Source of the DNA: a virus
DNA length: 64,000 bases
Reading direction: 5' to 3' (one strand)
IMG/VR virus record: IMGVR_UViG_3300021141_000001
In this document: positions 13,470 to 63,776 of the stretch, in pieces
Layout: each line of letters begins with the position of its first letter
How positions within the stretch are numbered: position 1 is the first letter of the stretch
The notes under the pieces: generated by a model
The model's database searches: none
Told to the model about the DNA's origin: nothing
Seen by the model: only the letters and a program-made list of their open reading frames with translations
Position numbers and translations under genes: made by a program

Positions 13470-13751
13470 ATGGAACAAATGAAAACAGTTTGTAGAAATC
13501 CTTGGTGTAAAGGACATTTCTATTATACAGAGTCAGATATGGTAGAAGTAAAAAGTGATATCAGAACATCTAAAATAAATGATGTTTTAAGTGAAGTTCA
13601 AAAAACTCCACCAAGTCAATGTCCAAAGTGTAGAAGCTTTGATAGTGAACTAAGTGGTGGTGTTGAGTGGAAAGATAAAGAATATGAAGGTAGTAGATTT
13701 GATGGCATGCCTCATCAACTTAAATATAAAGTAACAAATTATAAATTATAA
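13470..13751 (+). CDS. Zinc-ribbon protein
   Basis: CRNPWC...CPKC; internal IRTSKINDVL motif. Confidence 0.65.
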   Translation: MEQMKTVCRNPWCKGHFYYTESDMVEVKSDIRTSKINDVLSEVQKTPPSQCPKCRSFDSELSGGVEWKDKEYEGSRFDGMPHQLKYKVTNYKL

Positions 13752-14596
13752 TGAAAGCACACTTTTTTGACTTAGATACAATATTGACAACTGATAATAA
13801 AGTTTGGTTAGTGGATAAGACTATTCCAAATATACCTATTATGAAAATATCACAAAGTGATTTTAATTTAATTAAAAAAGGTATTTATAAAAGCCAAGGA
13901 AACTCTATAAATTTTAGTGGACACACTTATTGGTTACCAACAGATTTATTTGAGAAGATAAAAATTAAAGCTAAAAATCACAGAGCCGATATTTCTAATT
14001 TAGCTTTTTCTTTACAAGAGTTTATGAATAAAGAATTAATTGAAAATTTAGATTATGATATTAATTTAGAAAATATTTTACATTTGAAAAATACAGATGA
14101 TGATATTTATGTAATATGCTCAAAGAATACTAAGAGAAACTATGAGTTAATGATATCTAAAATAGAAGATAAATTAAAAGAAAATGGTCTAATTATTAAA
14201 AAGTTCTATTTTATATCAGAAACATTCTATAATAAAGTATCTGATGATATTTCTCATAAGAAAGTTAGATTATTATTACAACATATAGTTGGTCTTAAAA
14301 CTGAAGGTGATAAGTTTACTGAAGAAAAGTTAGGTCAATATGATGAATTATTCTTCTATGATGATGAAGAAAATGTTATTAAACTAGCAAAAGAATCTAA
14401 TAAACTTTTAACTGTTTTGTTATCAAACACTGATAATAAATTAAAAGAAATTATTAAAGAAGATTTGAAATCTAAAAAATACACATTATATGTTAATTTA
14501 ATAACTGGTAATAAAGTAAATAGATTTGTAACTACAAAAGTAGATATTCAATTTAGTAATTTAATAACAGTGTTTGAAAGTTTTAAATGGAGATAA
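13751..14596 (+). CDS. HAD-like protein (divergent)
   Basis: FFDLDT at the N-terminus and FFYDDE. Confidence 0.5.
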   Translation: MKAHFFDLDTILTTDNKVWLVDKTIPNIPIMKISQSDFNLIKKGIYKSQGNSINFSGHTYWLPTDLFEKIKIKAKNHRADISNLAFSLQEFMNKELIENLDYDINLENILHLKNTDDDIYVICSKNTKRNYELMISKIEDKLKENGLIIKKFYFISETFYNKVSDDISHKKVRLLLQHIVGLKTEGDKFTEEKLGQYDELFFYDDEENVIKLAKESNKLLTVLLSNTDNKLKEIIKEDLKSKKYTLYVNLITGNKVNRFVTTKVDIQFSNLITVFESFKWR

Positions 14597-15235
14597 TTAT
14601 TTATCTTTCTCTTTACTAATCATAGCATTCTTAATTAAATCATTAAGCTTTCTATTATCCATTATTTCTCCACCACCTATTGACTCACCAGCCGATTCTT
14701 CAGCCGCTATATTTTGAGCTTTAATAACTTCTGGATTCTCAATTTCATTAAGACCTAAATCTTTTCTTAGTCCTTTATAAAATTTCTCAAGTTCAGTTCT
14801 TTGTGTGGATGAGAATTTAGAGTTTTCTCTAATTTGACCAATTGTTTGATTGACAACTTCATGCATTCTAGCAGAATTATCTCCATTATCAACTTGTCTT
14901 AACTGTGATAAGAAGTTCTTTCTAGTCATTTTTGATAAGAAGATTGTTTCAGCATAAACTTTAGCATCTTCTCTCATTTTATTTCTTATATAAGGATGTT
15001 CTTTTAATTGAGGTACATCACTTAAATATAAATCAATAAGTGATTCTAATACTTCCATAGACTGTTGGCTAGCAACTGTCATGTCTGAATCATAATCATA
15101 TATTTCTATTTCACCTAAATCTGGTAAATCCTCAGGTCTAGCAAGGTGTTTACTTATATCAAATTCGCCACTTTCCGATTGGATTTCATCGAATTCATCT
15201 TTGATTCTATTTCTTTCGTTCTCTGTTTTTGACAT
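14597..15235 (-). CDS. Hypothetical helical protein, candidate terminase small subunit
   Basis: Divergent from TerL and shares a palindromic late promoter with it; size fits. Confidence 0.4.
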   Translation of the reverse strand: MSKTENERNRIKDEFDEIQSESGEFDISKHLARPEDLPDLGEIEIYDYDSDMTVASQQSMEVLESLIDLYLSDVPQLKEHPYIRNKMREDAKVYAETIFLSKMTRKNFLSQLRQVDNGDNSARMHEVVNQTIGQIRENSKFSSTQRTELEKFYKGLRKDLGLNEIENPEVIKAQNIAAEESAGESIGGGEIMDNRKLNDLIKNAMISKEKDK

Positions 15236-15252
15236 AGAAGGCGGTTTTTTAC

Positions 15253-15262
15253 AATATATATT
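15253..15262. promoter_or_regulatory. Palindromic late promoter AATATATATT
   Basis: Perfect palindrome in the 49-bp gap between divergent genes. Confidence 0.65.
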
Positions 15263-15284
15263 AAAAAATATCTTTTCCTAAAAT

Positions 15285-17432: not shown

Positions 17433-17456
17433 AAAAAGACATACTAAAAGTATGTC

Positions 17457-17549
17457 TTAGAATTTTCCAAAGATTTGTCTATTCTGAACTTCATCAACAT
17501 ATTTTTGTATTTCTGCTAGATAGTTCCAAATATTTTTAAGGTATTTCAT
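17457..17549 (-). CDS. Unannotated 30-aa peptide MKYLKNIWNYLAEIQKYVDEVQNRQIFGKF
   Basis: ATG overlaps the clpS stop codon (TAATG); followed by a terminator. Confidence 0.55.
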   Translation of the reverse strand: MKYLKNIWNYLAEIQKYVDEVQNRQIFGKF

Positions 17550-17833
17550 TAGTTGTTTGCCTCCATCGTAGCACTTAGTCCAGCACTTCTGAGTTTATCT
17601 TTCATAGTTGCTATTGTTTCAATATCTCCGTATTTAACATCACACTTTCCATTGTAGTGAACAATATGAGCGCATTGAGTAGCTTGTTCGGTTTCATGCT
17701 TACATATCTTCATAAGACAAGTAATAACCCACTCAAATGTATTGTGATCATCATTGTGTAAAACCAGTTTGTATGGTTTAGATAAAATTTCTTCTACTTT
17801 AGAAGATGTTTTCTTTTTTGTAATTGTTGCCAT
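17549..17833 (-). CDS. clpS: ATP-dependent Clp protease adaptor ClpS
   Basis: YKLVLHNDDHNTFEWVI...AHIVHYNGKCDV. Confidence 0.9.
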   Translation of the reverse strand: MATITKKKTSSKVEEILSKPYKLVLHNDDHNTFEWVITCLMKICKHETEQATQCAHIVHYNGKCDVKYGDIETIATMKDKLRSAGLSATMEANN

Positions 17834-17855
17834 AAATTGAATATTATATATTATT

Positions 17856-18374: not shown

Positions 18375-18469
18375 AGTTTTTTAAATATTTACAAATATAT
18401 ATAAAATTTCTCAAAAATAAAAGGTCGGTTTGGTAAAATAATATATAATTCCAAAAATAATAAGTTTTT

Positions 18470-18886: not shown

Positions 18887-18887
18887 T

Positions 18888-21615: not shown

Positions 21616-22578
21616 TTATAATAGTATATCTCTGAATTTACCAACAATGGTTAGACCTAGAACTATAGGATCTGTATTGGTTTCTAATTTAGATGAATAA
21701 TCTGATATGATAAAATTACATTCAAATAGTTTATCTATATTTTTACTTTCTGATATAGACCAATCAATAAATGGTTTTCCTAAAAGTCTAATCATTACAT
21801 CAATCTTTTCAGCACCAAAGTTAGTCATTAAGAAGTGATAGATTTTCTCATAGTCTAATGATTTATCATAAATACAAGAGTATAAATCTAATTTTACTTT
21901 ATTAGATACATTGGATGAATTTTCACCTAAACTACCAGTTTCTAAATAGTTTTGAACTTCAACCATTATAGACCTAAAGTCTGGAAACTTTTTAGTAATA
22001 ATAGAAGCCAAATCTTCTTTAGGAATTTCTTTACCTTCTTTTGGTAGAATTACATTATTGATTCTTTTATAAACTTCTTGTTTAAGATACTTTTCTTCTT
22101 CAAGACTTTGACAATCAAAATTAATTTGAGGAATTCTAGACTTAATACCATCAGAAATTTTATTTAAGTGATTGGTTGTAATAATGAATCTAACATTCTT
22201 ATTATATTTTTCAATAAATGCTTTGAAGGCATCTTGAAATTGAGCCGATACTCTTTCAAATTCATCTAAAAAGATGTATTTAATATCAGAATCTGTCTCC
22301 ATCATTGGAGTAAATTTACAGAAATCTTCAATCTCACTTCTTAACACATCAATAGATGTATATAAAGACGAGTTTAATTCAAGATACGGCTTATCCTTTG
22401 TGTATTTACCAATAAGGATTCTAGCCAAACTGGTTTTTCCGGTACCAAAGTGACCGTAAAATATAAAGTTTTGGTTAACACCATTTTCAAAATGTTTTTT
22501 AATTCTAGGTAAAAGAATAACATCATCCATAGTTTTTGGACGCCACTTTTCCCATAAGAGTAATGATTTAACAGACAT
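21616..22578 (-). CDS. gp44: Sliding-clamp loader AAA+ subunit (gp44-like)
   Basis: LWEKWRPKT, GHFGTGKTS, FLDEFE, SRIP, FPDFR. Confidence 0.92.
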   Translation of the reverse strand: MSVKSLLLWEKWRPKTMDDVILLPRIKKHFENGVNQNFIFYGHFGTGKTSLARILIGKYTKDKPYLELNSSLYTSIDVLRSEIEDFCKFTPMMETDSDIKYIFLDEFERVSAQFQDAFKAFIEKYNKNVRFIITTNHLNKISDGIKSRIPQINFDCQSLEEEKYLKQEVYKRINNVILPKEGKEIPKEDLASIITKKFPDFRSIMVEVQNYLETGSLGENSSNVSNKVKLDLYSCIYDKSLDYEKIYHFLMTNFGAEKIDVMIRLLGKPFIDWSISESKNIDKLFECNFIISDYSSKLETNTDPIVLGLTIVGKFRDILL

Positions 22579-25194: not shown

Positions 25195-25560
25195 ATGTAC
25201 CTAAACAACAAAGACTTATACATTGAAGTAATAGTATCAAAAGCACAAGGCAAACTAACTAGAAACGCAGAGAAAATGTTAGAACTACTTGCCAAAAAAA
25301 CAATCAAAAAAATGAGATATTGGTCTAATGATGATAAATTAGACTGTTACCAATCAGGACTATTAGATATGTTCCAAAACTGGTATAATTTTAATGAAGA
25401 TAAATCTGTTAATGCCTTCGCATACTTTACAGAGGTCTTCAAAAGAGGAATTGCCAAAGGTTATAATGAACTTTACAAGAAAAAAGGCGATAACGAACAC
25501 TTAATCAAATTAATTTCAATTGAAGGTTCAAACGATGGACAAGGACTCCACTCACTTTAA
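25195..25560 (+). CDS. gp55: Late-transcription sigma factor (gp55-like)
   Basis: YLNNKDL...NFNEDKSVNAFAYFTEV matches the gp55 family signature. Confidence 0.85.
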   Translation: MYLNNKDLYIEVIVSKAQGKLTRNAEKMLELLAKKTIKKMRYWSNDDKLDCYQSGLLDMFQNWYNFNEDKSVNAFAYFTEVFKRGIAKGYNELYKKKGDNEHLIKLISIEGSNDGQGLHSL

Positions 25561-25696
25561 TCTAAAAACATTTGATATAGTTATGACACCAGCATTTAGT
25601 ACTAGTAGCATACCTATAACTATATTTCCTTCAAGACAGAAAAGACGAAAGGAAAAAATTCAAAACATCTTTAAAATAAAAAATCCACTCAATTGA
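25535..25696 (+). CDS. Unannotated 53-aa ORF containing RRKEKIQNIF
   Basis: ATG 25535 (or 25583) to TGA 25696; carries the recurrent motif. Confidence 0.4.
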   Translation: MDKDSTHFNLKTFDIVMTPAFSTSSIPITIFPSRQKRRKEKIQNIFKIKNPLN

Positions 25697-25724
25697 GTGG
25701 ATTTTTACTTTATAATCATTTATG

Positions 25725-31163: not shown

Positions 31164-31613
31164 TTATGCTGTCATTTTCGGATAAATAAAGTAGAAGGAT
31201 TTAACTTGATTATCTACTATGTTTTGTTTGAGTTCTAGTTCAACTTCTGATTCAATTAAGTCTCTAATAATTTTCCCCCATTCAGTGGTCATTGTTTTAA
31301 TTGTTACTTCTAATTCTAAAACATTGTTACCTTTAAGTATGAATTTCATAAACTTTATTGCTGATGATGCTTTTTTAAGAACATCGTAGTCATAAGCATC
31401 ATCAACTATAACATTTACATACATAACACCGTGAGCGTGACCAGATATATCTAAAGTAAACTCAATCTTTTTATCTTCTAAAACAGAGTTTAATTTAATC
31501 TCTCTTTTATATTGGGACCAATTATTAAAATTAGATAATAATTTCTCGTATTGTTCTAAAGTATTATTATCTAATTCAATATTAAAAGACTTTGTTACAC
31601 TCCACCCTTCCAT
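31164..31613 (-). CDS. Hypothetical protein
   Basis: Contains KREIKLNSVL; downstream of rnr. Confidence 0.6.
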   Translation of the reverse strand: MEGWSVTKSFNIELDNNTLEQYEKLLSNFNNWSQYKREIKLNSVLEDKKIEFTLDISGHAHGVMYVNVIVDDAYDYDVLKKASSAIKFMKFILKGNNVLELEVTIKTMTTEWGKIIRDLIESEVELELKQNIVDNQVKSFYFIYPKMTA

Positions 31614-33507: not shown

Positions 33508-33903
33508 TTAAGAAACCTCATTTTGTTTATCTCTTTTTGATATATTATCTACACCATACTTCTCTATAAGTGTATTTTTCATCTTACTAAGTACCTTTTT
33601 ATTCTGTATTGGATAGTCAACTCCAAAGTTTTTTCTTAATGTTTCTTTTCTTTTTGATTCAGAACATTTTCTACAATAATATTCTCCAAAGTTGTTATCA
33701 TATTTAACATAGTTTTTGAATATTACTTCTTTTTCGATTCCACAACCGTCACACTTACATTTTATTTTATAATGTGATCCTTTTGACATTAATTCAATTG
33801 GTATTTTAATAATCTCTCCAATTGCTACATCATATCCTAAATCATCATAGTACTGATAATTCGACTCATTAATTTTTATCTCTATCTCTCTTGTAAGGAT
33901 CAT
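33508..33903 (-). CDS. Zinc-binding protein of homing-endonuclease-associated type (no nuclease seen)
   Basis: CKCDGCG, YCRKC, K.T..K..GVD repeats. Confidence 0.55.
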   Translation of the reverse strand: MILTREIEIKINESNYQYYDDLGYDVAIGEIIKIPIELMSKGSHYKIKCKCDGCGIEKEVIFKNYVKYDNNFGEYYCRKCSESKRKETLRKNFGVDYPIQNKKVLSKMKNTLIEKYGVDNISKRDKQNEVS

Positions 33904-36279: not shown

Positions 36280-37983
36280 ATGTCACACATTAGAATAGAC
36301 AAATCAAAAGCAGTTAAGAAATGGGCTCCAGTTTTGGAAAACATGGGTGTAACTGAAGATAGAGTAGAATGGATGTCAGAAATGGCTGAGTATCACTCAA
36401 TCAATGAAAATGCGTATGTAAACGCATCAAACGTAGCAGGTATGGGAGCTGTATTGAATCCAGTTGTTGGTTCATTAGCAGGTAATACATTAGCTACTTA
36501 CGCAAACGGTGGTGGTGTTGCTGGTTCTGGAGACGTAGGTCAAAACTTACTTCCAGTAGCTATGAAAATTGCTGCTCAAACAATCGGTTTAGACTTAGTA
36601 GCTGTTAAACCAACTCCAGGTCCAAAAATCGATTTATTATACATCGATTTCCAATACGATGATGTTAATAACTTAACAGATGGTTATGAAAAGCCACAAG
36701 TTTTCAAATTATATGCTAGTAACATTACTGACATCACTGCTCAAATCAGACTTGACGTTGCTGGTGCTGGTCCTTTAACTGCTTTACAAGAAACAACTGG
36801 TGGATTACAAGGTGGTAGATTATTCTACGGTATCACTGCTTCATCAGCATTTGTAAGTAACACTTTACCAGCATCTAAAACAAATATAGTTGAATTCTTA
36901 GGTTTCTCTCGTATCGATGGTTACCCAATGTTTAGAGTATTCAGACAAGCAAATACATCAGGTAACATTTCTGTTCCTCATACATTTGTTGCTGCTGACA
37001 ACACATTTGCTGCTTCAGGTAGTATGCTTTCTCAAATTTTAGGTTTAGCTGGTATCGTTCCTAACTCAGGAACAAAAGAAGTTCAATTAATCTCTGCTTT
37101 AGAAGATCATATCCCAGGATTTACATCAAACTGGACTGCTGCTTCAGGTGGTGCTTTAGGTAACTATCCAATGGATCGTGCTTCTGATGATAACAGTTAT
37201 GCTGGTGTTATCGGACCAAAAATCTCTTCTAAAACTGTAGCAGTTGGTACTATCGAAGTATCTTCAGCTCTTAGAAGAACTGAAATCGAAGATATCAAAG
37301 CTAACACAGGTATGGATATCGTTCAAAAAATGGAGTCTATCCTTGTTAACGAATTGTCTCAAACAATTTCTAAACAAATCGTTGCTAAAATCTTCGAAAT
37401 GGGTGCTCTTAATGCTGTTAACGCTCCTGCTGCGCCAGCTGGTTCTGCTAACTCTGGTGGTACTATCTTCGACTTGAACACTGCTTATGCTGCTACTACT
37501 TATGTTGGTGGTGAAACTACTCACGCTGTTCAACGTAAGTTAATCACTAAGATTGCTCACGCTTCTAACTACATTGCTACTGAAGGTCGTGTAGGTCCTG
37601 CTCAATACCTTATCACAAACGGAGGTCTTGCTGCTGCTTTACAAGATATCGCTGGTTACACAATTAACCCAGTTAAATCTAAATTAAACGGACAAGGTCA
37701 ATTATACCCTGTAGGTTCAATCGGAGACATCTCTATCTATGTAGATCCATATATGAGATATAACGATAACAGAATCGTGTTAGGTCGTAAGAACAACCCT
37801 GACCAACCAGGTATCATTTTCGTACCTTACTTAATGGCTCAGTCTATCTCAGTTATCTCTGAAGCTACATTCGCTCCAAGAATGTTGTTACGTTCAAGAT
37901 ACGCTGTAACTGAAGTTGGTTGGTTCCCACAAAAACAATATATGACTATTACAGTTACTGACGCTGCTCAGTTATTAAACTAA
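36280..37983 (+). CDS. gp23: Major capsid protein (gp23-like)
   Basis: KKWAPVLE, A..IG.DLV.VKP..GP, YVDPY, FVPY, F.PR....SRY; strongly biased codon usage. Confidence 0.92.
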   Translation: MSHIRIDKSKAVKKWAPVLENMGVTEDRVEWMSEMAEYHSINENAYVNASNVAGMGAVLNPVVGSLAGNTLATYANGGGVAGSGDVGQNLLPVAMKIAAQTIGLDLVAVKPTPGPKIDLLYIDFQYDDVNNLTDGYEKPQVFKLYASNITDITAQIRLDVAGAGPLTALQETTGGLQGGRLFYGITASSAFVSNTLPASKTNIVEFLGFSRIDGYPMFRVFRQANTSGNISVPHTFVAADNTFAASGSMLSQILGLAGIVPNSGTKEVQLISALEDHIPGFTSNWTAASGGALGNYPMDRASDDNSYAGVIGPKISSKTVAVGTIEVSSALRRTEIEDIKANTGMDIVQKMESILVNELSQTISKQIVAKIFEMGALNAVNAPAAPAGSANSGGTIFDLNTAYAATTYVGGETTHAVQRKLITKIAHASNYIATEGRVGPAQYLITNGGLAAALQDIAGYTINPVKSKLNGQGQLYPVGSIGDISIYVDPYMRYNDNRIVLGRKNNPDQPGIIFVPYLMAQSISVISEATFAPRMLLRSRYAVTEVGWFPQKQYMTITVTDAAQLLN

Positions 37984-38492: not shown

Positions 38493-39848
38493 ATGGCAGA
38501 TACTAATGAACCTGTAAGAGTTAAATTTTCCGAAGAACTTCATGATTTATTAAAAGTTTTAGAAGATGAGAATAGTTATATCGCATTTGAAATGCTTTGG
38601 CTAAATGAACCTAATTCTAAATATCATAATGGTTTAGGAATTACTGATGTTAATATATCTAAGACAAAATCTTGTTTAGATGTTACATCTAGAGGTAAAG
38701 TACACCCTATGAAAATAGAAAATTTTATTAAATTTTACTTTAAAAATTATTTTCAAACTGCTGATATTCAAGATTTTATTGAACAATATGATATATTATC
38801 AGGTGGTGGTTCGGTTGAAAGTATTGCTGTTAATAGAATTACACCAGAACCTTTTACTTATAATCCTAAAGACGTTAGAAGTACATTTATTTCATTAGTT
38901 ACTAAGACATATCCTCACGGACACGAAGAAGAAGTAATGGCTTTTATGCCTAAATTGGATAAAGATATTGTAGGTAACTATTATAAGATTATTGGCGAGA
39001 ATTCAACAACAATGTTTACGTCTCACTTAGATACTGCTGATAGAAAACAAGGCATTACTAAACTTCTTTCTAAGAAAGATGATAAAGGTGATGAAATTAT
39101 CTATACAGATGGTTCTACTATATTAGGTGCTGATGATAAATCAGGTGTTGCTGTTATGCTTTATATGATGGCTCATAATGTACCAGGTCTTTATTACTTC
39201 TTTATGGGTGAAGAAAGAGGTGGTATTGGTTCAGGTTTATTATCTTCAGTGTATGAACAAGTTGAATATCTTAAAAATATTAAGAGATGTGTTTCTTTTG
39301 ATAGAAGAGATGTTTGTTCAGTTATCACTTCTCAATTAGGCAGAACTTGTTGTTCTGATCAATTTGGAACTGCTTTGGCTAAACAATATAATTCACACGG
39401 TCTTAATTTATCATTAGATCCAGGTGGTATATACACAGATTCTGCTTCATTTATTGACCAAATTCCTGAATGTACTAACATTTCAGTTGGTTATTATAGT
39501 GAACATACTGGTAAAGAAAGACAAAATATCAACTATTTAGAAAGACTTGCTAAAGCTAGTGTAAAAGTAAATTGGGATTCATTACCAACTACTAGAAAGA
39601 TAGGAATTGATGAAGAAACTATTAGAAAATATGGTAAGTTAATTAGTGATATAAAAGCAACACCATTTGGTATTGATGTTAAAATAGCATCTGATAGAGC
39701 TACTACATTTATTCAATGTGATTTAGAAGAAGGTTATATTGATGAAACATATGAGGCTTTAACAACATTACAATTCTTATTAAACAAACACAAAGTAAGT
39801 CAAAAGGTTTATTTTGACGCAGAATACATAAAAATAGATTTACTATAA
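38493..39848 (+). CDS. M28/M20-like zinc peptidase, paralogue 1
   Basis: SHLDT, GADDKSG, GEERG, FDRR, EHT. Confidence 0.8.
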   Translation: MADTNEPVRVKFSEELHDLLKVLEDENSYIAFEMLWLNEPNSKYHNGLGITDVNISKTKSCLDVTSRGKVHPMKIENFIKFYFKNYFQTADIQDFIEQYDILSGGGSVESIAVNRITPEPFTYNPKDVRSTFISLVTKTYPHGHEEEVMAFMPKLDKDIVGNYYKIIGENSTTMFTSHLDTADRKQGITKLLSKKDDKGDEIIYTDGSTILGADDKSGVAVMLYMMAHNVPGLYYFFMGEERGGIGSGLLSSVYEQVEYLKNIKRCVSFDRRDVCSVITSQLGRTCCSDQFGTALAKQYNSHGLNLSLDPGGIYTDSASFIDQIPECTNISVGYYSEHTGKERQNINYLERLAKASVKVNWDSLPTTRKIGIDEETIRKYGKLISDIKATPFGIDVKIASDRATTFIQCDLEEGYIDETYEALTTLQFLLNKHKVSQKVYFDAEYIKIDLL

Positions 39849-42308: not shown

Positions 42309-42477
42309 GCATTATAAAGGTGGTACTTATGAAGTAATTACTTTAGCCACTCATACGGAAACAGGAGAAAAGTTAGTAGTTTACAAGTCTATCAACTTTG
42401 GTTCTATTTATGTTAGACCATTAGATATTTGGAACTCAACTTCTGAACATGGTCAAAAAAGATTTGAATTAATATAA
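42277..42477 (+). CDS. DUF1653 protein
   Basis: YKHYKGG.Y.V...A.HTET.E.LVVY...VRP. Confidence 0.85.
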   Translation: MNYPLPRQRYKHYKGGTYEVITLATHTETGEKLVVYKSINFGSIYVRPLDIWNSTSEHGQKRFELI

Positions 42478-42701
42478 TGGCAATAGCTTGTAATCCTAGT
42501 GTATTTAATATAAATAACGCTTCAAATTCAACAGCAATTAATGTTGATTCAGATGGTTGTACAGTTATTAGTAAGTTGGTTCTATTAGATGAGAAGACTG
42601 GTAATAAATGGCAAATTAAAATATTAGATGGTGAGTTGATAGCTGAGCCACTTGAATTAGAAGATAAAAGAGAATATAAACTAAATAAAATACTAAAATG
42701 A
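42477..42701 (+). CDS. Hypothetical protein ending KREYKLNKILK
   Basis: Translationally coupled ORF. Confidence 0.6.
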   Translation: MAIACNPSVFNINNASNSTAINVDSDGCTVISKLVLLDEKTGNKWQIKILDGELIAEPLELEDKREYKLNKILK

Positions 42702-43890: not shown

Positions 43891-45231
43891 ATGAGTAAAT
43901 TAGTAACGTTAAACGGAAATAATGATCAAGAACTTCTAAGTTCTATCTTTGACAATGAAATTGTTGTATTTGAAGATATTCAAGGATCAAAAATATGGGT
44001 TAATTGGGATGGTAAAGAATTTACTATTAAACCAAAGTCAATGAGTAGTGAAAAACTTAATCTTGTTGATTTGGCTATTCAAAACTATTATAATCCAGGT
44101 ATTAAATATTTAGAATCATTGGATGTAAGAGTTAAATCATTGTTGAATAAAAAATGGTGGTTTTGTTTTGAGTACTTTCCAGATGAACAACCTGCTAATA
44201 TTGGATATGATAGAGTTCCTAAAAATCATTTAGTTTTAACTGCTATTAATAAAGGTGGTAAGTATGACTTTAGTGTTGAAGAGTTAGATGAGTATGCTAG
44301 ATTATTTGATGTTGATATGTTACCGATTGTTTTTCAAGGTAAACTAACTGAGAGAATGATTGAAGCTATTAAATACTTTATTAATACAAGTGAAGAAGAT
44401 TTAGAGTATGTATTTGGAGAAAAGTCATTTTCATTTTTCTTCTACAGAATATTAAATCCAAGTTCTACTAACTCGTTCTTAATGAAAGATGAAGATTATC
44501 AATCAAATCTTGAGAAACTTATTGTAAGAACTAAAAGTGGTGATATTTCATTTGAAATATTAAATCCTTTATACAGAAGAATAAGTGATAGTAACTCAAC
44601 AGAATTTGTTGAAATTTATACACTTATATTAGTTAACTTCTTAAACTTCTGTCAATCATTTAACTTAGATGAAATTAAATTAAAAGGTGAAAGAAGAGAT
44701 GAAGTTTATATTTATCTAATGTCTAAACTATTCAATGTTTATGTTTCTGAAGTTAAACAAGATTTATTAGACTTTGATTTTGTAGTTCCTGAATTCTTTG
44801 ATAAAGAAAAGTTCAAAATCAATACAGAATTAATTCCTAATAAATTGACCAAAGATTATATTAAAGAATCTGATAAGTTAGAATATATCTTCAAAGTTAT
44901 TCTTGGTTCATTTAACAAGAAAAGAAAGAAAGCAATTGGTGTATTTACTGATAATACAGTTATATTATTTAACACATTTGTCAATGATATTAATGTTTAT
45001 ATTGAAAAGTATCTAAATAAAGTACACGAGGTTGAATTAACAAGAGCTGGTTTGCTTGACTTTGGTGATTTCTTTGAGATTCAATATGATCAAGATGGTG
45101 AAGGTGATGTTTATCCTGATGTTTACTCTGAGTTTGAAAAAGGAACACCTGAAGAAAAGAAGAAAAAAGGTAAAGGTGGTAAAGGTTTACCCGTACCAGA
45201 AGAAGGACCGTCTAAAACTCCTACTAAGTAA
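43891..45231 (+). CDS. RNA-ligase-fold protein with degenerate active site
   Basis: EDIQGS in place of EKxDG; FEY, LPIVFQG, EKLIVR resemble Rnl2-type motifs. Confidence 0.45.
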   Translation: MSKLVTLNGNNDQELLSSIFDNEIVVFEDIQGSKIWVNWDGKEFTIKPKSMSSEKLNLVDLAIQNYYNPGIKYLESLDVRVKSLLNKKWWFCFEYFPDEQPANIGYDRVPKNHLVLTAINKGGKYDFSVEELDEYARLFDVDMLPIVFQGKLTERMIEAIKYFINTSEEDLEYVFGEKSFSFFFYRILNPSSTNSFLMKDEDYQSNLEKLIVRTKSGDISFEILNPLYRRISDSNSTEFVEIYTLILVNFLNFCQSFNLDEIKLKGERRDEVYIYLMSKLFNVYVSEVKQDLLDFDFVVPEFFDKEKFKINTELIPNKLTKDYIKESDKLEYIFKVILGSFNKKRKKAIGVFTDNTVILFNTFVNDINVYIEKYLNKVHEVELTRAGLLDFGDFFEIQYDQDGEGDVYPDVYSEFEKGTPEEKKKKGKGGKGLPVPEEGPSKTPTK

Positions 45232-45443
45232 TGAACTCAATTGATATTAATATGAGAAGTGTTCAAGTTGAAACTAAAACAAGAGCGCTTAGATCTACTT
45301 GGACTCGTGAATTGGCAACTGATTTAGATTCATATCATAATATTGATATTGAAAAGGAACTTTCTCATCTTTTGAAAGAAGAGCTTCGTAAACAACGAGC
45401 TTCTAGTAGAAAAAAATCAATCAATAAAATCTTCCAAAATTAA
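45231..45443 (+). CDS. 70-aa gp23-core fragment protein
   Basis: VETKTRALRSTWTRELATDLDSYHNIDIEKELSHLL resembles T4 gp23 IEAKSRQLKAAYSIELAQDLRAVHGMDADAELSGIL. Confidence 0.7.
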   Translation: MNSIDINMRSVQVETKTRALRSTWTRELATDLDSYHNIDIEKELSHLLKEELRKQRASSRKKSINKIFQN

Positions 45444-46910: not shown

Positions 46911-47450
46911 ATGACAGGATTGGAACACAAGGATGCCTCATTTATTCTACTATCATCTACACGTTTAGATGATATGATATCTATTTTATATGCCAAAGAA
47001 TATCAAGTATTACCCATTAAAGGTTACTACAAGGGTCAATATGAAGACTCTGTAATGGCTTATGGTAAAGTAGATAATGATACTTTAAGAAAAGATGTTC
47101 TTTTTCTTTTAAATCATTTCCATGAAGAATGTGCTATTATTAAATACACTGAAGAAACTAATGCTAAAAAGATATTTAAAGATGGATCTGAGATACCTAT
47201 GGGTATTGTAATGTATAATACAGATTCTGATAATATGTCTTATTTACATAATGGTACATCATTCTCATTTGTTGAATCTAAAAGATATTGGAGACCAACT
47301 AAAAAAGAAGATTTCAGAGTTGGTATGCTAGTTGAATATTTCAATAATAATAAGTGGTTTGAAAAGCTTGTTGAGAATCCTAATGATGAATATGAAAAAC
47401 TTTATAAACTACTTATAAAGTATGATAAAGTTAGAGTTCCTTCTAAATAA
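46911..47450 (+). CDS. Hypothetical protein
   Basis: 179 aa; late promoter. Confidence 0.65.
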   Translation: MTGLEHKDASFILLSSTRLDDMISILYAKEYQVLPIKGYYKGQYEDSVMAYGKVDNDTLRKDVLFLLNHFHEECAIIKYTEETNAKKIFKDGSEIPMGIVMYNTDSDNMSYLHNGTSFSFVESKRYWRPTKKEDFRVGMLVEYFNNNKWFEKLVENPNDEYEKLYKLLIKYDKVRVPSK

Positions 47451-48222
47451 TTTCAAACCAATTTATAATCTTAGAATAATTAGGAGTTTCTTTTAAGAAA
47501 TATCTCATGTCATTTGGACAGTTAATTACATTTAATCCATTCTCAGTTTTCTGAGCATTTCTCATCATAATAATCTTATTTGATTTGATATAAGGAGAAG
47601 GTATAACATTCATACCATTTATATTTCCATCCACAACACCATCTTTTATATCAGACATCATCATTCCATTAGACATCAGAAGATATTTATAAGCATCTAA
47701 ACCAACTATAATAGTATTGGCTGGTCCTGTTCTTCCGGTTGATGATATTAGATTACTGGTCATCATTAATCTTGTTATAACTTTTCTTGATGTTGATGAC
47801 TCATTTTCATAATCTGTTAGATTAGGATCTTTTTGAATAGAAACATTCAAATTTTGAGGAATATTCATTGACTTTGATGTTAATGATTCTAATGTCATCA
47901 TAACATCATTGTAAATATCAAATAAGTCTAAATAGGTTTTACCTTGAACATTAATAGAGTTAAGTTTAGGAGTTATAGTCATCATATAACTTTCGTTATC
48001 TAATGGATTTGAAAACGGTTCTCTATTTTTGAACTCTTCAACTTTATCATCTATAATAGCATCAATCGCAAGTTCACGATTCTTTCTTTTTAATTCTCTT
48101 TGATATTCCTCATTGGATGATTCATCCCAATCCATAAAAGTCATTACACCTTGTGGCAAAGAAGGCTTTGTAGATTCTACATAGTTACAGATTTTCTCTA
48201 AATCTTTAGATGAAATTATCAT
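47443..48222 (-). CDS. Truncated major-capsid paralogue (C-terminal part)
   Basis: RKVITRLMMTSNLISSTGRTGPANTII vs MCP RKLITKIAHASNYIATEGRVGPAQYLI; GNINGMNVIPSPY vs GSIGDISIYVDPY. Confidence 0.7.
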   Translation of the reverse strand: MIISSKDLEKICNYVESTKPSLPQGVMTFMDWDESSNEEYQRELKRKNRELAIDAIIDDKVEEFKNREPFSNPLDNESYMMTITPKLNSINVQGKTYLDLFDIYNDVMMTLESLTSKSMNIPQNLNVSIQKDPNLTDYENESSTSRKVITRLMMTSNLISSTGRTGPANTIIVGLDAYKYLLMSNGMMMSDIKDGVVDGNINGMNVIPSPYIKSNKIIMMRNAQKTENGLNVINCPNDMRYFLKETPNYSKIINWFEII

Positions 48223-55514: not shown

Positions 55515-55916
55515 ATGGAGAAAAAAGTAGGAAGAATTGAAAATATTTCTTTTCCGGAACTTAAAATAGAAAAGATAAAGGCAAAAGTAGATACTGGTGC
55601 TTATGGAGTTGCTTTACATGTTGATAGTATAAAACTTGAAGATGGTAAGTTATATTTTACAGTTGGTAATGAAGAGTTTTCTTATAATAAATTCAAAACT
55701 ATTATAGTTAAAAATTCATTTGGTAAAGTTCAGAAAAGATTTTCTATATTTACTAAATTAACAATTGGTGATTCAATATATAAATTTTATGTATCTTTAA
55801 CAGATAGAAAAAAAATGAGATATCCTGTTTTAATAGGTAGAAGATTCCTTTACAAATTCAACTATTTAGTTGATGTAACAAAAAAGAATATAAATGATAG
55901 AAATAAAAAGGTGTAA
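55515..55916 (+). CDS. RimK-associated retropepsin-like protease
   Basis: AKVDTGA, LTDR..MRYPVLIGRRFL. Confidence 0.85.
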   Translation: MEKKVGRIENISFPELKIEKIKAKVDTGAYGVALHVDSIKLEDGKLYFTVGNEEFSYNKFKTIIVKNSFGKVQKRFSIFTKLTIGDSIYKFYVSLTDRKKMRYPVLIGRRFLYKFNYLVDVTKKNINDRNKKV

Positions 55917-56424
55917 TTATATTACCGGAAATCCTTCAGACGTTTCTTATGCTGTTAAGAAAATAGTTGACTTCTTAGATATGGAGGGTAGAAATCCGGT
56001 CTTATTTTGTAAACCAAGAAGTTCAAACTCTACTGCTACTACACTTAAATATTTAATGGAACCTAAAATAAACTTCAATAATATTGAAGATTTTACAGAA
56101 GTATTAAATAATAAAGGTAATCTATTTAGAGTTGATTTATTAGTATTCGATTTTTGGCATTTGAGTGTTTCTTCAATAATAGAATATAAACAAGTTATTG
56201 ATAAATTAAATATTGATTATATAATATTAGCCAAAGAGTATCATTATAAATCATCTGAGGATGTTAATGATTATCATGTTAAAATTGAATCTAGAGAATT
56301 ATATCACAGTGAATACTCAATAACTGATAAAATATCTGGATGGACTTCAAACTTAGAAAATTTATCAAAATCTTACATTCGTAATAAAAAAATTGACGAT
56401 ATTTTCAATAAAAATGATGAATAA
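55894..56424 (+). CDS. Degenerate P-loop-like protein ending IRNKKIDDIF
   Basis: YITG at the N-terminus; LLVFD (Walker B-like). Confidence 0.45.
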   Translation: MIEIKRCNYITGNPSDVSYAVKKIVDFLDMEGRNPVLFCKPRSSNSTATTLKYLMEPKINFNNIEDFTEVLNNKGNLFRVDLLVFDFWHLSVSSIIEYKQVIDKLNIDYIILAKEYHYKSSEDVNDYHVKIESRELYHSEYSITDKISGWTSNLENLSKSYIRNKKIDDIFNKNDE

Positions 56425-56425: not shown

Positions 56426-56456
56426 TTTGTAATTGTTAATAAGTTGTTTATATTTG
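56426..56456 (+). promoter_or_regulatory. Bacteroidetes-type promoter
   Basis: TTTG - 19 nt - TATATTTG. Confidence 0.75.
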
Positions 56457-56480
56457 TATAATAAATATAATTATACATTC

Positions 56481-57575
56481 ATGAGAATACGCAGAAAGTT
56501 TTTACAACTTACGAAATACACTTATCCACACGGCACAGAGGGATTTTTAAAATCATATCTTCCGGAAGGTACTAAAAAAGATGCCTATGGTAATTTTTAC
56601 TACCTAATTGGTGAGGATCCTACAACAATGTTTACTTGTCATTTAGATACTGCTTGTTCTAAACAAGTAAAAGTAAATCATGTTCAAACACAAAATATAA
56701 TTAAGACTGACGGTTCTTCTATTTTAGGAGCCGATGATAAAGCAGGAATGGTTGTTATTCTTAATATGATTGAGAATAAAGTTCCAGGTCTTTATTATTT
56801 CTTTATTGGCGAGGAAGTTGGTTGTGTTGGTTCTAGTAAATTAGCTCAAAATTGGGTAAATAGTGAATTCAGTTATACTATTTCTAAAGTTGTTTCTTTT
56901 GATAGAAGAAGTACCGGATCTGTTATTACACATCAATGGTATGGTCGTTGTTGTTCTGATGAATTTGCTGATGAATTATCTTTTAGATTAAATGGAACCG
57001 GTCAAAGATTAAAACTTGAACCAGATGATACGGGTGTTTTAACAGACTCTGCCCAATTTATGGATATCGTACCAGAGTGTACTAATATTTCAGTTGGTTA
57101 TATGTATGAACATACAACCGGTGAGTATCAAGATATTGAGTTTCTACAAAGACTTTGTAAAGCTGTTTGTTTAATTGATTGGGAATCACTTCCTGTTGAA
57201 AGAAATCCATATGATATTTCAAATGAAGATGATGATGATGATGATTTAGAATTTTCAACAGATGATGAAGTTTATTCAGAAGAATACTATTCTTACTTTT
57301 CAGTAAATGGTAAAACAAAGAAAATGTATATTGCTACTGATTTGATAAAAAAAGAAACTGAATTAATCAGAAATTATTTAACAAATAATGGTTATGGTGA
57401 TATGTATGGTATTACCTGGAATGGTCATAAGTGTTATGCTCAAAATGAAACAAATTGTTATGACTTTGTTGGCTCTCGTACAGATCTTATGGATGTGATA
57501 TCTGAATTGTGTTCAGTTCCTTTGAATAAGATTAAAGAGAAATTGAGAAATGATATTAGTCATTTAGTATTCTAA
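56481..57575 (+). CDS. M28/M20-like zinc peptidase, paralogue 2
   Basis: TYPHG, CHLDT, GADDKAG, GEEVG, FDRR, PECTNISVGY, EHT. Confidence 0.8.
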   Translation: MRIRRKFLQLTKYTYPHGTEGFLKSYLPEGTKKDAYGNFYYLIGEDPTTMFTCHLDTACSKQVKVNHVQTQNIIKTDGSSILGADDKAGMVVILNMIENKVPGLYYFFIGEEVGCVGSSKLAQNWVNSEFSYTISKVVSFDRRSTGSVITHQWYGRCCSDEFADELSFRLNGTGQRLKLEPDDTGVLTDSAQFMDIVPECTNISVGYMYEHTTGEYQDIEFLQRLCKAVCLIDWESLPVERNPYDISNEDDDDDDLEFSTDDEVYSEEYYSYFSVNGKTKKMYIATDLIKKETELIRNYLTNNGYGDMYGITWNGHKCYAQNETNCYDFVGSRTDLMDVISELCSVPLNKIKEKLRNDISHLVF

Positions 57576-58284: not shown

Positions 58285-58288
58285 TTCC

Positions 58289-59658: not shown

Positions 59659-60001
59659 TTTTTTTGATAGCTTTAAGGGTAAGCCTAAATATGACCATAA
59701 AGTCAGAGTAGTTCATTTTAAGAAAGAACACTTTGATATTTATATTGGTCGACTTCCAAATGGTAAGTACAATAAATGGGCTTACCCTAAAGAACTTCGT
59801 GAATCATTTCTAGAAGGAACACCAAGAAAAACAATCGTAGATGCTTATGAGAATTATCTCATAAATAATGAAGAACTAATGAATTCACTTCATGAATTAA
59901 AAGATAAAGTTCTTGGATGTTGGTGTAAAGATGAAGGTGGTAAAGGTAAATCTTGCCACGGTGATATTTTAGTAAAGTGGGTAAAAAGGAATTGTAATTA
60001 A
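59651..60001 (+). CDS. DUF4326 protein
   Basis: DIYIGR, KW, ELKDKVLGCWC, CHGDIL. Confidence 0.85.
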   Translation: MDDFFDSFKGKPKYDHKVRVVHFKKEHFDIYIGRLPNGKYNKWAYPKELRESFLEGTPRKTIVDAYENYLINNEELMNSLHELKDKVLGCWCKDEGGKGKSCHGDILVKWVKRNCN

Positions 60002-60003
60002 AT

Positions 60004-60519
60004 TTATTTAGTCTTACTTGAAATCCAAGCACTGGCTAGTATAGAAATAGTTAAGGCCATTGCGCCAGTAAAAACTCCCCAGAAATTATTATTTATAACA
60101 CCACTAACAATCATAAATATTGACAAAATTGGACCTCCAAGTCCAAAAATATATGAAAAGAATTTCAATAATTTCTCTTTAATATAGTCACCAAGACCTT
60201 CTTGAACTGCCTCAAGTTCTTTATCTTTATTTCTCATTATTATTTCTCTATCTAACCACTCTTTTACTAATACTGGATTTGTTAAATCTTCTAAAGTACA
60301 TCCAAACTTTTCAGTTAATTTTTCTAACTCTTCAGAGACTTTTAATTTATCCAAACTATTCATTTTATTTATTATGTCAGTAGTCTCATGCTTAATTTTC
60401 ACATCTTCTTCTTTGTTTAAGTGTAAATCCTCAACATTATATTGATATAAATCTTTATCATGAAAATGTAGATGAGTAGTGTTCTCATTAAATTGTTTAA
60501 AGGTCTTTATTGATTTCAT
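60004..60519 (-). CDS. Two-TM protein with capsid-targeting-like leader
   Basis: MKSIKTFKQFNE; C-terminal hydrophobic hairpin. Confidence 0.6.
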   Translation of the reverse strand: MKSIKTFKQFNENTTHLHFHDKDLYQYNVEDLHLNKEEDVKIKHETTDIINKMNSLDKLKVSEELEKLTEKFGCTLEDLTNPVLVKEWLDREIIMRNKDKELEAVQEGLGDYIKEKLLKFFSYIFGLGGPILSIFMIVSGVINNNFWGVFTGAMALTISILASAWISSKTK

Positions 60520-60534
60520 TCTAAATTTAATATT

Positions 60535-62397
60535 TTAATGTGCGTGAACAAAACTATAGAATCCTTTACATACATTCGGTAATAAAGGAGCTTTACTTGC
60601 TAAATTTTTACCCCAAGAAGTCTCTGTAAAGATATATCCAAGAGTTGCTAAAATTAAAAGTATCAGTGATATTGTCTCAAATGCTGCGTGTAATCCAGGT
60701 ATAGCATGTGTGAAAAGAGATACTAAGAAGGCTAAAAGGAGACTACCGGCTCCAATCGCTAATCCTTTCCAATTAATTCCCTTTCCTTCTCCACCTTCTG
60801 ATTCGTTAACTTTTTTGAAATCTTCAAATTTACTCACTCTGGATTCCTTGGCTATGGGAATGCCAACTTCTGCCAAAACTTCTTTAGATTTTTCCACTGC
60901 TCCACCTAGCCCAATCATTTCACCAGATTTCTCAATCCATTCTCCTGGTAAATGTGTCGTTAAGGCAAATGATTCAGCAGCAACTCCTGCTATAAAGCCA
61001 ATTAATGTACCAATCATTGTAAATTTAGCAGCGTATGAAACAAGATTTTTCGCACCTTCATATAAAACCCCTAATTTACCTGATAACCACGCTGGTAAAG
61101 CGGCCATTCCTTTTGCCACAACCTCTCCGAGAATTTCCATAAGTTTTCCAAAAGGTGATAAAACCCATAATACTAAATTTTTAACCCAGCCTTTAATTCC
61201 TCTCGATTCGGTTTTTTTACCTTCTTTTTCAACTTGTTCTTCTGTATTGTCAGCCTCAAATATCTTCTCAATTTTAGTTTCGTGAAGTTTAATGAGTTCA
61301 ATTGTATCAAAATTTCTATTCATTGACATATACCCTTTAAGAGAGTCCCAAATAAAACTATCATTGACAACTTCTTTTTTATCTTCTTTTTCAGGAGTAG
61401 ATTCTTTACCTTCTTCAGAATTTCCTTCTTCTCCTGTCGATAAAATTTTATTAGCCGAAGAACTTGCTACTTCCTCAAATGACCCACCAACCGATCCACT
61501 TATTTCACCTCTGAAATATTTCACCATATCTTTGACATCCGCACCAACTGTCTTCACTTCTTCGCCTAATTTAGTGGCATCTACTTTTTCCCCTAATTTT
61601 GTCATTTTCTGAAGTTTAGGCTTCAACCCTGGTAATACTTTTACAGCATGTGTTTTTATGAAACCCCAAACTTTCATCAATACTTCTTTAATCTTAGCCC
61701 AAATCTCTTTAACTATATTAGCAATTTTTTGTGCAAAATCCTTTAATGAGGCATAAACTCCGTCAAATATAGATTTGGATGTTTTCATAAAATCATCAAT
61801 TGAATTGAGAACCTTTTTTGCGGTTGTTTCAATAGCAGCTACTACTTCTGGACCAAATAGTTTTGTTGCTACATTTTTAAGAGCCTCAAGTCCAGGTTTG
61901 AAAATATCTTCAACAATAGAGTCCCAAACAACTTTAGCACTTGAAGAAAGAAAGTTCCAAATCTTAGATAGACCTTTTTTAACAACTTCAGTTCCTGCAT
62001 TTACCTTATCTTTAATCCAATCTACTAAACCTTCACTCATTATAATTGACTCTAAGTTTTCCTCAATTAATTTTATATCAGCTTCTGAAATGTTTTTACT
62101 TTCTAAATAAGTTCTTGTTTCTTTTGCAATATCTTTTATTCCGTCTTGATAAAACTTAGCACACACCATGTTCTTAGTATCCTGAAGTAATTCCTTATCT
62201 TCTAGAATAAGACCATAACTTTCATTGATTCTTATGTTATTTTTAAGATGAATTGTTACAACATCATGTTTTTTACCTTCATAGCAGATTGATTCAAATT
62301 CTCTTATCTTCATATCATTAATGAAACTAATCTTTTGGGCTCTTTTAGTAGCCATTTGCTTTAAGTAAAAATCATTGTATCGATTAAGTCTTGCCAT
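60535..62397 (-). CDS. Large amphipathic-helix membrane protein (candidate ejection protein)
   Basis: Trp-spaced helices (SKIWNFL, VVWDSI, EIWAKI, KVWGFI), C-terminal TM segments, internal VSKFEDFKKVNE. Confidence 0.5.
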   Translation of the reverse strand: MARLNRYNDFYLKQMATKRAQKISFINDMKIREFESICYEGKKHDVVTIHLKNNIRINESYGLILEDKELLQDTKNMVCAKFYQDGIKDIAKETRTYLESKNISEADIKLIEENLESIIMSEGLVDWIKDKVNAGTEVVKKGLSKIWNFLSSSAKVVWDSIVEDIFKPGLEALKNVATKLFGPEVVAAIETTAKKVLNSIDDFMKTSKSIFDGVYASLKDFAQKIANIVKEIWAKIKEVLMKVWGFIKTHAVKVLPGLKPKLQKMTKLGEKVDATKLGEEVKTVGADVKDMVKYFRGEISGSVGGSFEEVASSSANKILSTGEEGNSEEGKESTPEKEDKKEVVNDSFIWDSLKGYMSMNRNFDTIELIKLHETKIEKIFEADNTEEQVEKEGKKTESRGIKGWVKNLVLWVLSPFGKLMEILGEVVAKGMAALPAWLSGKLGVLYEGAKNLVSYAAKFTMIGTLIGFIAGVAAESFALTTHLPGEWIEKSGEMIGLGGAVEKSKEVLAEVGIPIAKESRVSKFEDFKKVNESEGGEGKGINWKGLAIGAGSLLLAFLVSLFTHAIPGLHAAFETISLILLILATLGYIFTETSWGKNLASKAPLLPNVCKGFYSFVHAH

Positions 62398-62482
62398 ATT
62401 ATATTTTAATTTTTTACAGGATATATATTAAAATATAAACCTTTTTTTTTTCAATTTATATAACCTTAATAAAATTATATCT

Positions 62483-63268
62483 ATGCCAGAGTTAGCAGAA
62501 TTGAAAATAATGTCTGATTATATTAATCAGAATGTCAAAGACAAAACATTTACAAAACTATATCACGTTGAAAAAGGAAATATTCCTGTTGATTCAAATC
62601 TAATTGAAAAATTCAAACTTGAAGCTGACTCTAATGGTAAAGAGTTAGTATTAAAGTTATATAATGATAATGTTGATATTAGTATCTCAGTTTTTATGGG
62701 TATGTCTGGTAATTGGCTTTTTACACCAACAGAAACTTGGTCTGATAGAAAGTTCACTAGAATGAGATTAGATACTACTGATGGTAGTTCACTACTTCTT
62801 TATGGTCTTTATATGGGTCCTAAATATAGAGTTGGTGGCTTTACTGGTGTTAAAAGAGGTCTTGACCCAACTAAAGAATTTGATAGTTTCAAGAATGTAG
62901 TTATATCTAATTTAGATAAAAAGGTTTTTGACAAACCTATTTGTGAGGCTTTATTAGACCAAAAATATTTCAATGGTATTGGTAACTATTTAAGAAGCAC
63001 AATTCTTTATTACTTAGATGTTAATCCTTTTGAAACGGCTAGAACTATTATCAAATCACATCCACAAGTTTTAGATATGTGTAAGGATATTCCTATGAAG
63101 GCATATGAACTAAATGGTGGTCAGTTACAAGATTGGAAGAATCCATTTGATACAGACTTTGAAGAATTCAAAAAATGGGTATTCTATCAAAAAGGAATTT
63201 CTTGTAAAGATAATACCGGAAGAACCTTCTGGTTCAATGAAAAGTGGAAAGATAGTTGTCCATACTAA
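62483..63268 (+). CDS. Fpg/Nei-family DNA glycosylase
   Basis: MPELAE, GKE, GMSG, LLDQKYFNGIGNYLRS (H2TH), GRTFW. Confidence 0.9.
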   Translation: MPELAELKIMSDYINQNVKDKTFTKLYHVEKGNIPVDSNLIEKFKLEADSNGKELVLKLYNDNVDISISVFMGMSGNWLFTPTETWSDRKFTRMRLDTTDGSSLLLYGLYMGPKYRVGGFTGVKRGLDPTKEFDSFKNVVISNLDKKVFDKPICEALLDQKYFNGIGNYLRSTILYYLDVNPFETARTIIKSHPQVLDMCKDIPMKAYELNGGQLQDWKNPFDTDFEEFKKWVFYQKGISCKDNTGRTFWFNEKWKDSCPY

Positions 63269-63299
63269 AACATATTTCTATTATTTAATATAATAATTG

Positions 63300-63776
63300 A
63301 TGTTTGATAAAAATTTCAATATTATACATGGTGATAGAATTTCTGGTAGAACAGAGTTTCTATTTAATATTTCTAATAGTTTTAATAAAGTAGGATTAAA
63401 ACTATTTTTCTTATCATGTACAGGTGATATTGAGACTAAAGATAGATTTAATGATATCTTTGATGATTATAGAATTATAAACACATTTGATGAAGTCAAT
63501 AATTATAAAGTAATAGAAGTTGTAAAAGAACTATCTGAAAAAAGAAAGTATAATTTTCTAATTATAGATGATATTGATTACTTGCCAAAATCTTGTGTTG
63601 ATTTATTATCAGAAATAGATACTTCTAAAATTGTAACTTGTTTAAGTGACAATTATAAAAAACTACCTGAAGAATCTAATTTTTATAATATAAGTGATGT
63701 TAGTGATTTATCTAATATTGATGAAATTGTTAAAAAAATAATTAGAGACCAAAAAATAAATTCAGTATTAAAATGA
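63300..63776 (+). CDS. Degenerate P-loop NTPase-like protein ending IRDQKINSVLK
   Basis: HGDRISGRT (Walker A with K->R); LIIDD (Walker B). Confidence 0.5.
   Translation: MFDKNFNIIHGDRISGRTEFLFNISNSFNKVGLKLFFLSCTGDIETKDRFNDIFDDYRIINTFDEVNNYKVIEVVKELSEKRKYNFLIIDDIDYLPKSCVDLLSEIDTSKIVTCLSDNYKKLPEESNFYNISDVSDLSNIDEIVKKIIRDQKINSVLK

Follow-up and report, generated by a model that had tools for sequence, protein, structure and literature searches.

A recurrent nine-residue peptide suggests a portable docking motif on small, mutually unrelated proteins of a huge-phage lineage

Several described systems use a short peptide to bring unlike proteins to one hub. In phage T4, tails of gp43, gp55, and gp33 bind the sliding clamp and are hydrophobic and acidic (PMC2988020), and the PIP-box, which binds PCNA, has the form Q-x-x-psi-x-x-theta-theta (PMC6881253). 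As read from the T4 genome, the clamp-binding tails are SLDFLFG and SLDFLYEAND. Degrons and tethers of AAA+ proteases are terminal peptides common to many substrates or adaptors; ssrA ends in LAA, and SspB docks on ClpX through its XB peptide. The T4 capsid targeting sequence (CTS) is an N-terminal, cleaved tag of about 10 residues on late head cargo, and encapsulin cargo-loading peptides, whose consensus is of the G-S-L-x-I-G-S-L type, bind the shell interior. Here we analyze a nonapeptide with the consensus R-[DE]-x-K-[IL]-[ND]-x-[IV]-L that recurs in a 64,000-nucleotide stretch of viral DNA (IMG/VR record IMGVR_UViG_3300021141_000001; hereafter the window) and in its relatives. Our data suggest that this nonapeptide is a portable helical docking motif, or address tag, on small, mutually unrelated proteins of a huge-phage lineage. 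Tags that are read by a hub are of a known kind, but in the literature on jumbo phages and on phage short linear motifs we found no description of such a motif, of its scale, or of its pairing with a CTS-like leader.

The window has a G+C content of 29% and contains a module of structural and replication genes related to those of T4. Among deposited phages, only the 634-kb uncultured phage LR745206.1 is related to it at the DNA level; closer relatives are present in IMG/VR, including G002, a 476-kb contig rated 97% complete. Proteome-wide counts were made on G002 (655 proteins) and other relatives, and the genomes compared were G002, G003 (195 kb), G004, two 50-kb samples of LR745206.1, and the first 50 kb of T4. 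Greedy gene calling gave 75 window proteins, with 20,225 residues in total. A nine-column profile was trained on the 30 strict-pattern sites of G002 and used with score cutoffs of at least 12 and at least 11. Expected counts were derived analytically from composition or from per-protein shuffles (300 for the window).

The strict pattern R-x-x-K-[IL]-[NDQ]-x-[IV]-[LF], which had been proposed in an earlier note on this DNA made from the sequence alone, was found 5 times in the window proteins, compared to 0.03 expected analytically or 0.05 in the 300 shuffles (maximum of 1). The core K-[IL]-[NDQ]-x-[IV]-[LF] also occurred 5 times, with ∼1 expected, and R stood three residues upstream in 5/5 cases. 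When the profile, trained on the other genome, was applied to the window, 6 matches scored at least 12 (0.5 expected). The excess was similar across the G002 proteome, with 30 strict-pattern sites versus 0.32 expected, 72 profile sites scoring at least 12 versus 1.9 in shuffles, and 85 sites in 84 proteins scoring at least 11 versus ∼2 to 4 expected. An end variant, R-x-x-K-L-x-x-L-G-I, forms the exact C-terminal end of 20 further G002 proteins, and the tag or its end variant is present on 104/655 G002 proteins (∼16%). Profile matches numbered 16 in G003 (1.0 expected) and 21 in the samples of LR745206.1 (0.9 expected), versus 1 in T4 (0.6 expected).

Where in the protein does the peptide lie? 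Enrichment at the C-terminus, a check that the earlier note had called for, was pronounced: 65/85 G002 sites were located no more than 10 residues from the C-terminus, versus 9.2 expected, most commonly with one residue after the tag and for the most part with 0 to 8. The carriers were small, with a median of 113 amino acids compared to 162 over all G002 proteins. Among the 30 strict sites, R0 and K3 were invariant and [IL]4, [IV]7, and [LF]8 were invariant classes, with L in most sites and F in 3/30 at position 8. Positions 2 and 6, on the same helix face, were free, and the other seven were constrained. As read from the sequence, this pattern of constraint is the signature of a short helix lying in the groove of a partner.

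The eight peptides on which the earlier note was based are all present in the window sequence; the positions it gave are starts or ends of genes, not tag sites. Its pattern fits five sites in called genes and the 25643 site described below, and it does not fit SRKKSINKIF and NRELAIDAII. Four sites had been placed at the C-terminus, and these four tags do lie 1 to 5 residues from it. RDQKINSVL (63744..63770, plus strand; score of 24.2) is located 1 residue from the end of a 159-amino-acid RecA/FlaH-like P-loop protein (gene 63297-63776), REYKLNKIL (42669..42695, plus strand; score of 20.1) 1 residue from the end of a 74-amino-acid protein (gene 42477-42701), RNKKIDDIF (56380..56406, plus strand; score of 17.4) 5 residues from the end of a 176-amino-acid protein (gene 55894-56424), and the variant RKKSINKIF (45408..45434, plus strand; score of 13.0) 2 residues from the end of a 70-amino-acid gp23-like fragment (gene 45231-45443). 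Two window sites, in the genes at 13470 and 31164, lie in a loop or near the N-terminus. RTSKINDVL (13563..13589, plus strand; score of 15.2) occupies the loop between two Cys pairs in a 93-amino-acid zinc-ribbon-like protein (gene 13470-13751), and REIKLNSVL (31479..31505, minus strand; score of 21.6) forms residues 37 to 45 of a 149-amino-acid protein (gene 31164-31613). The degenerate RELAIDAII (48052..48078, minus strand; profile score below 9) forms residues 49 to 57 of a 259-amino-acid gp23-like protein (gene 47443-48222).

The eighth peptide, the tag-like RKEKIQNIF (25646..25672, plus strand; the 25643 site), is found in a 52-codon open reading frame (25535-25693) 3' of a gp55-like late sigma gene (25195-25560, plus strand; phrog_234, E value of 4e-6). 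It lies within an A-rich run that precedes a terminator hairpin (∼25690-25720). Between the window and G002, this reading frame differs by 10, 4, and 7 substitutions at the first, second, and third codon positions and by a 6-nucleotide indel. Because the substitutions show no third-position bias, the 25643 site is probably noncoding. The gp55-like gene encodes 121 amino acids in both the window and G002 and differs by 25 synonymous and 0 nonsynonymous changes, leaving the protein identical. A reading in which a frameshift in the gp55 homologue makes the 25643 peptide its C-terminal tail was considered and dropped, as the substitutions in this frame show no coding constraint.

Could the tag as a whole be a by-product of K/I/N-rich composition or of a nucleotide or translation signal at gene ends? 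The genome has 29% G+C, and both the 25643 peptide (in the window and in G002) and a similar peptide at G003:111848-112051 lie in A-rich runs before terminator hairpins. However, per-protein shuffles yielded ∼100-fold fewer matches, which places the tag well above the background frequency that, by the earlier note, would have spoken against it, and the tag's codons follow genome usage with no fixed DNA word kept. Internal copies are also conserved, and the tag persists at 32% identity. We regard this explanation as largely refuted and give it next to no weight. Codon choice at 62 sites matched genome-wide synonymous usage at each conserved residue, except that ATA/GTA was mildly overrepresented at position 7. 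A DNA-level repeat was rejected on the same grounds, since the eight window sites also differ in their synonymous codons. The agreement in codon choice between the tag and the genome shows that selection acts on the tag's amino acids.

The tag was retained among orthologues at 32 to 51% identity, contrary to the loss that the earlier note had considered, and this includes the degenerate site at 48052. Members of the 63297 family keep the tag at 32 to 37% identity, orthologues of the 55894 protein (48 to 51% identity) keep SY[IK]RDKKID[DH][IL]F, and the capsid-fragment gene at 45231 keeps it at 38 to 47% identity in G002, G003, and G004. The G002 orthologue of the 31164 protein, only 37% identical overall, keeps KREIKLTNLL, and that of the 42477 gene has REFKLNEILK. 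RELAIDAII does not have K3, yet it is kept in four genomes as R-E-x-[AV]-I-D-A-[IV]-[ILV]. In the 13470 gene, the tag loop is kept in G002 and the whole loop is absent from the G003 orthologue; therefore, the tag behaves there as a modular insertion. A profile of the 63297 family retrieved 87 cluster representatives among 1.84 billion, and 64/72 near-full-length members scored as tagged in their last 30 residues, the rest being visible variants. To the earlier note, two P-loop carriers had looked like broken versions of core proteins. Neither is a broken core gene; the 63297 protein belongs to a conserved family of its own (the 87 clusters) with the tag kept throughout.

Outside the tag, only one similar pair was detected among the 84 G002 carriers, in agreement with the claim that the carriers are unrelated. 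In AlphaFold models of the 63297 protein and of one G002 carrier, the tag formed a terminal helix with the lowest pLDDT (predicted local distance difference test) of the model, ∼50 or below after bodies with pLDDT of 70 to 90, and this helix was not confidently packed on the body. Protein-level selection, conservation among orthologues, and a low-confidence terminal helix in two models are all in line with the portable module on unrelated proteins that had been proposed. Might the tags instead associate with one another or cap the proteins that carry them, promoting oligomerization or stability with no common receptor? A short amphipathic helix, with hydrophobic periodicity upstream in some carriers, could do so. 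However, a stable bundle would need more than nine residues, the polar R0, D/E1, K3, and N/D5 are as conserved as the hydrophobic positions, the helix is the lowest-confidence part of both models and is unpacked on the body, and no common fold links the carriers, whose bodies range from a P-loop and a tube fold to a zinc ribbon and pieces of the major capsid protein (MCP). We consider self-binding quite improbable. One common receptor that grips all carriers through the tag helix is, in our assessment, probable; the predicted conserved binding face would consist of R0, K3, [IL]4, [IV]7, and L8, flanked by [DE]1 and [ND]5.

The carrier folds that could be recognized comprise three capsid-protein pieces, the RecA/FlaH-like P-loop, two nucleotidyltransferase-like proteins, and a tail-tube/Hcp fold. 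Some carriers are indeed pieces or miniatures of core folds, as had been proposed, based on Gp23 matches, an MCP piece, and the tail-tube/Hcp fold. The product of 45231-45443 (plus strand) matched Pfam Gp23 with an E value of 2.5e-11 over profile positions 132 to 182, and BLAST revealed no similarity between this product and the phage's own MCP. The product of 47443-48222 (minus strand) matched Gp23 weakly (E value of 6e-4), and the G002 carrier L011:9912-10661(+) contains MCP residues 441 to 498 and is 41% identical to the MCP of that genome. As far as their sequences tell, these capsid pieces are old. Different gp23-like pieces are encoded in separate small genes besides an intact MCP (window 36280-37983), and the tag or a variant of it is present on each of the three. 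The tube-fold carrier, L022:4277-4621(+) (115 amino acids), consists of a tail-tube/Hcp fold followed by a flexible helix, ...ERREEILDKVLNN, a tag variant without K at position 3. Its fold assignment was clear (VIA Z of 11.2; root mean square deviation of 2.2 Å over 89 residues), as almost every one of the top 50 was a tube or Hcp protein, and the tagged protein is conserved in 46 metagenomic homologues.

Another portable tag occurs in this lineage. About 30 G002 genes (31 counted) encode a T4-CTS-like N-terminal leader, M-I-K-K-Y-N-Q-F-I-x-E, for example, L013:17481-17882(-) and L013:17885-18358(-). Leader proteins are larger, and nearly half of their genes have a late-like promoter motif. 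The two sets share one protein versus ∼4 expected in G002, consistent with the separation of carriers and leader proteins claimed in the earlier note. A TAATATATA-like motif, scored as AATATATA, precedes the capsid, portal, protease, sheath, and terminase genes and is likely, by this placement, a late promoter. Within 60 nucleotides upstream, AATATATA was present at 5/104 tag genes, 14/31 leader genes, and 111/521 other G002 genes (P = 6e-6). TAnnTTTG-like motifs of the Bacteroidota type precede small-gene arrays rich in the tag (G002 340 to 364 kb and 436 to 476 kb), and, with this crude assignment of promoters, the tag was encoded by 41/135 genes behind such motifs versus 20/258 behind late-like motifs. 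Two tags thus appear to be in use in the lineage: late head cargo bears an N-terminal leader, and non-late proteins bear a C-terminal tag.

In the window, (T)TAATATATA recurs 10 to 40 nucleotides 5' of structural genes, the positions being 36280, 29407, 34075, 8216 (minus strand), 15285, 13470, and 46911. TAnnTTTG-like motifs, typical of Bacteroidota sigma-A promoters, are found upstream of the window genes at 11992 and 56433. These motifs give a hint of a Bacteroidota host.

Can the tag be a peptide that loads small proteins into the head by binding the capsid or scaffold, in the manner of encapsulin cargo? The C-terminal position agrees with this, as do the three carriers that represent pieces of the MCP. 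Like the T4 CTS, the tag is a portable peptide of ∼10 residues on unrelated proteins of a T4-related phage, and the two have in common a core of K-h-N/Q-x-h-h; K-h-N-x-h-h is also the core of this phage's own leader. Encapsulin and microcompartment peptides, too, are short terminal (often C-terminal) peptides or helices that direct varied cargo to a single shell protein, whose fold may be HK97-like or another. However, the T4 CTS is N-terminal, is cleaved, and marks late head cargo, whereas the tag is C-terminal and belongs to non-late genes. The tag sequence is unlike encapsulin peptides, and its timing, with a separate CTS-like leader set tied to late-like promoters (from which tag genes are depleted) and almost disjoint from the tag set, argues against a capsid destination. 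We consider head loading improbable.

Which protein could serve as the common receptor? We tentatively propose that the receptor is a ClpC-type unfoldase of the phage itself, working with ClpP, and that the tag acts as a tether or degron. Non-late tagged proteins would then be delivered to one protease, or would regulate it, for example, in the timing of their removal. G002 encodes a ClpC-like unfoldase of 710 amino acids (L022:4643-6772(+), G002 284643-286775; E value of 1e-69) and ClpP (L030:754-1512(-), G002 440754-441512; E value of 2e-55). The ClpC-like protein is a double AAA+ protein with a VGF loop, a UVR-type middle domain, and an acidic N-terminus, EDDDDD; it has no Clp_N domain. LR745206.1 also encodes a ClpC-like protein and ClpP, the latter in two genes, and both proteins are 84 to 85% identical between G002 and LR745206.1, as conserved as the portal. 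In G002, the ClpP gene lies inside a tag-gene array, and the conserved tagged tube-fold gene lies directly upstream of the ClpC-like gene. ClpC-ClpP is our leading guess because of this conservation, the placement of ClpP in a tag array, and the tagged gene upstream of ClpC. The tag also resembles AAA+ degrons and tethers such as ssrA and the XB peptide in being a terminal peptide at the flexible end of a folded body, in being common to many proteins, and in occurring in a phage that encodes a ClpC-like protein and ClpP of the cognate type.

Several observations weigh against ClpC-ClpP as the receptor. The tag is unlike any known Clp degron or tether, including LAA and the SspB XB peptide, some copies are internal, and the phage ClpC is without the usual adaptor-receiving N-domain. 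Tags in loops or near the N-terminus and carriers conserved throughout the lineage fit docking better than simple disposal. The position of ClpP is weak evidence because tag arrays take up much of the genome, and ClpC and ClpP are known only from the relatives G002 and LR745206.1. The promoter classes behind the non-late timing are consensus guesses, with the early-type motif giving 26 matches in an antisense control versus 35 in the sense direction. Complex prediction with the ClpC-like protein and 36-residue tag tails gave a score of 0.00, which speaks neither for nor against binding. Searches for HslV and Lon did not find either protease, and tmRNA was found neither by ARAGORN over the whole of G002 nor by Rfam over 180 to 260 kb.

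All of the support for a docking tag applies equally to another hub, such as host RNA polymerase, the ribosome, a chaperone, or another phage protein, and no observation links the tag to Clp in particular. A MoxR/CobS-like AAA+ ATPase, for instance, is encoded at G002 387168-388301. No positive evidence points to any one of these alternatives, and we consider a receptor of this kind possible but doubtful.

A more specific alternative is that the tag binds a sliding clamp, as the lineage's equivalent of the T4 gp45-binding tail or PIP-box, and tethers many small proteins to it. Like the tails of T4 gp43, gp55, and gp33 and the PIP-box, the tag is short and portable, lies mostly at the very C-terminal end, and occurs on unlike proteins that would meet on one hub. 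Its hydrophobic spacing (positions 4, 7, and 8) and N/D at position 5 align with T4 ...S-L-D-F-L-F and with the PIP-box. Clamp clients typically carry their motif at the C-terminus and in some cases at the N-terminus or in a loop, as is seen for the tag. Affinity for PCNA is known to rise with basic flanks (PMC6881253). A gp44-like clamp loader is encoded in the window (21616-22578, minus strand; phrog_168, E value of 4e-47). However, the tag is basic, with aliphatic residues at positions 4 and 7 (I/V at 7), whereas hydrophobic and acidic residues characterize the T4 tails (PMC2988020) and the PIP-box has aromatic residues at positions 7 and 8. The gp55 homologue ends without such a tail. Some 100 clients, most of them small, of unassigned function, and encoded in arrays of non-late genes, would be without precedent among phage clamps. 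No clamp gene was recognized in the window or G002 with PF02916, PF09116, PF00712, PF02767, PF02768, PF00705, phrog_223, or a home-made gp45 profile, nor by PHROG scans of the replication-module proteins, although these searches used sequence models that a divergent clamp could escape. A weak PF02767 match proved to be a LAGLIDADG endonuclease, and a weak match to the gp45 profile proved to be a glycosyltransferase. We therefore rate a clamp as an unlikely receptor.

If ClpC-ClpP is the receptor, a more elaborate role for the carriers can be imagined. Early miniproteins that mimic conserved parts of the virion might serve as baits for host defense sensors or competing phages, with the tag tethering the catch to ClpC-ClpP. 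Capsid pieces, a tail-tube-fold protein, and packaging-ATPase-like P-loops would then make a natural adaptor library for directed proteolysis. We regard this as a long shot.

Other genes of the window and of G002 complete the picture of the module. The window encodes a tail sheath, large terminase, portal, gp21-type prohead protease, and gp23-type capsid protein. Two paralogous peptidases are encoded at 38493-39848 and 56433-57575 (both plus strand; phrog_4191, E values of 5e-64 and 1.5e-71; borderline Pfam M28), and the second of them immediately follows the tagged gene 55894-56424. Homing-endonuclease-like genes with GIY-YIG/HNH PHROG matches (33508-33903 and 1847-2194, both minus strand) adjoin nuclease and SbcD-like genes. 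In G002, L045:792-1238(+), which is SmpB-like by eye only, adjoins L045:1258-2130(+), LAGLIDADG endonuclease-like by eye only, and there are ∼52 tRNA genes (L018 to L021 and L027).

Short linear motifs that join many proteins to one hub are central in eukaryotic cells and are barely charted in phages. Here, one nine-residue helix marks about one-sixth of the proteome in widespread phages of 0.5 to 0.6 Mb, and most of the proteins it marks are early-type "dark matter." Its receptor, if found, would give a shared fate, whether turnover, localization, or recruitment, to ∼100 proteins of unassigned function, and it would provide a compact transferable tag for Bacteroidota-type hosts. Two separate tags, one late and N-terminal and the other non-late and C-terminal, would offer a rare, testable picture of protein sorting by a virus.

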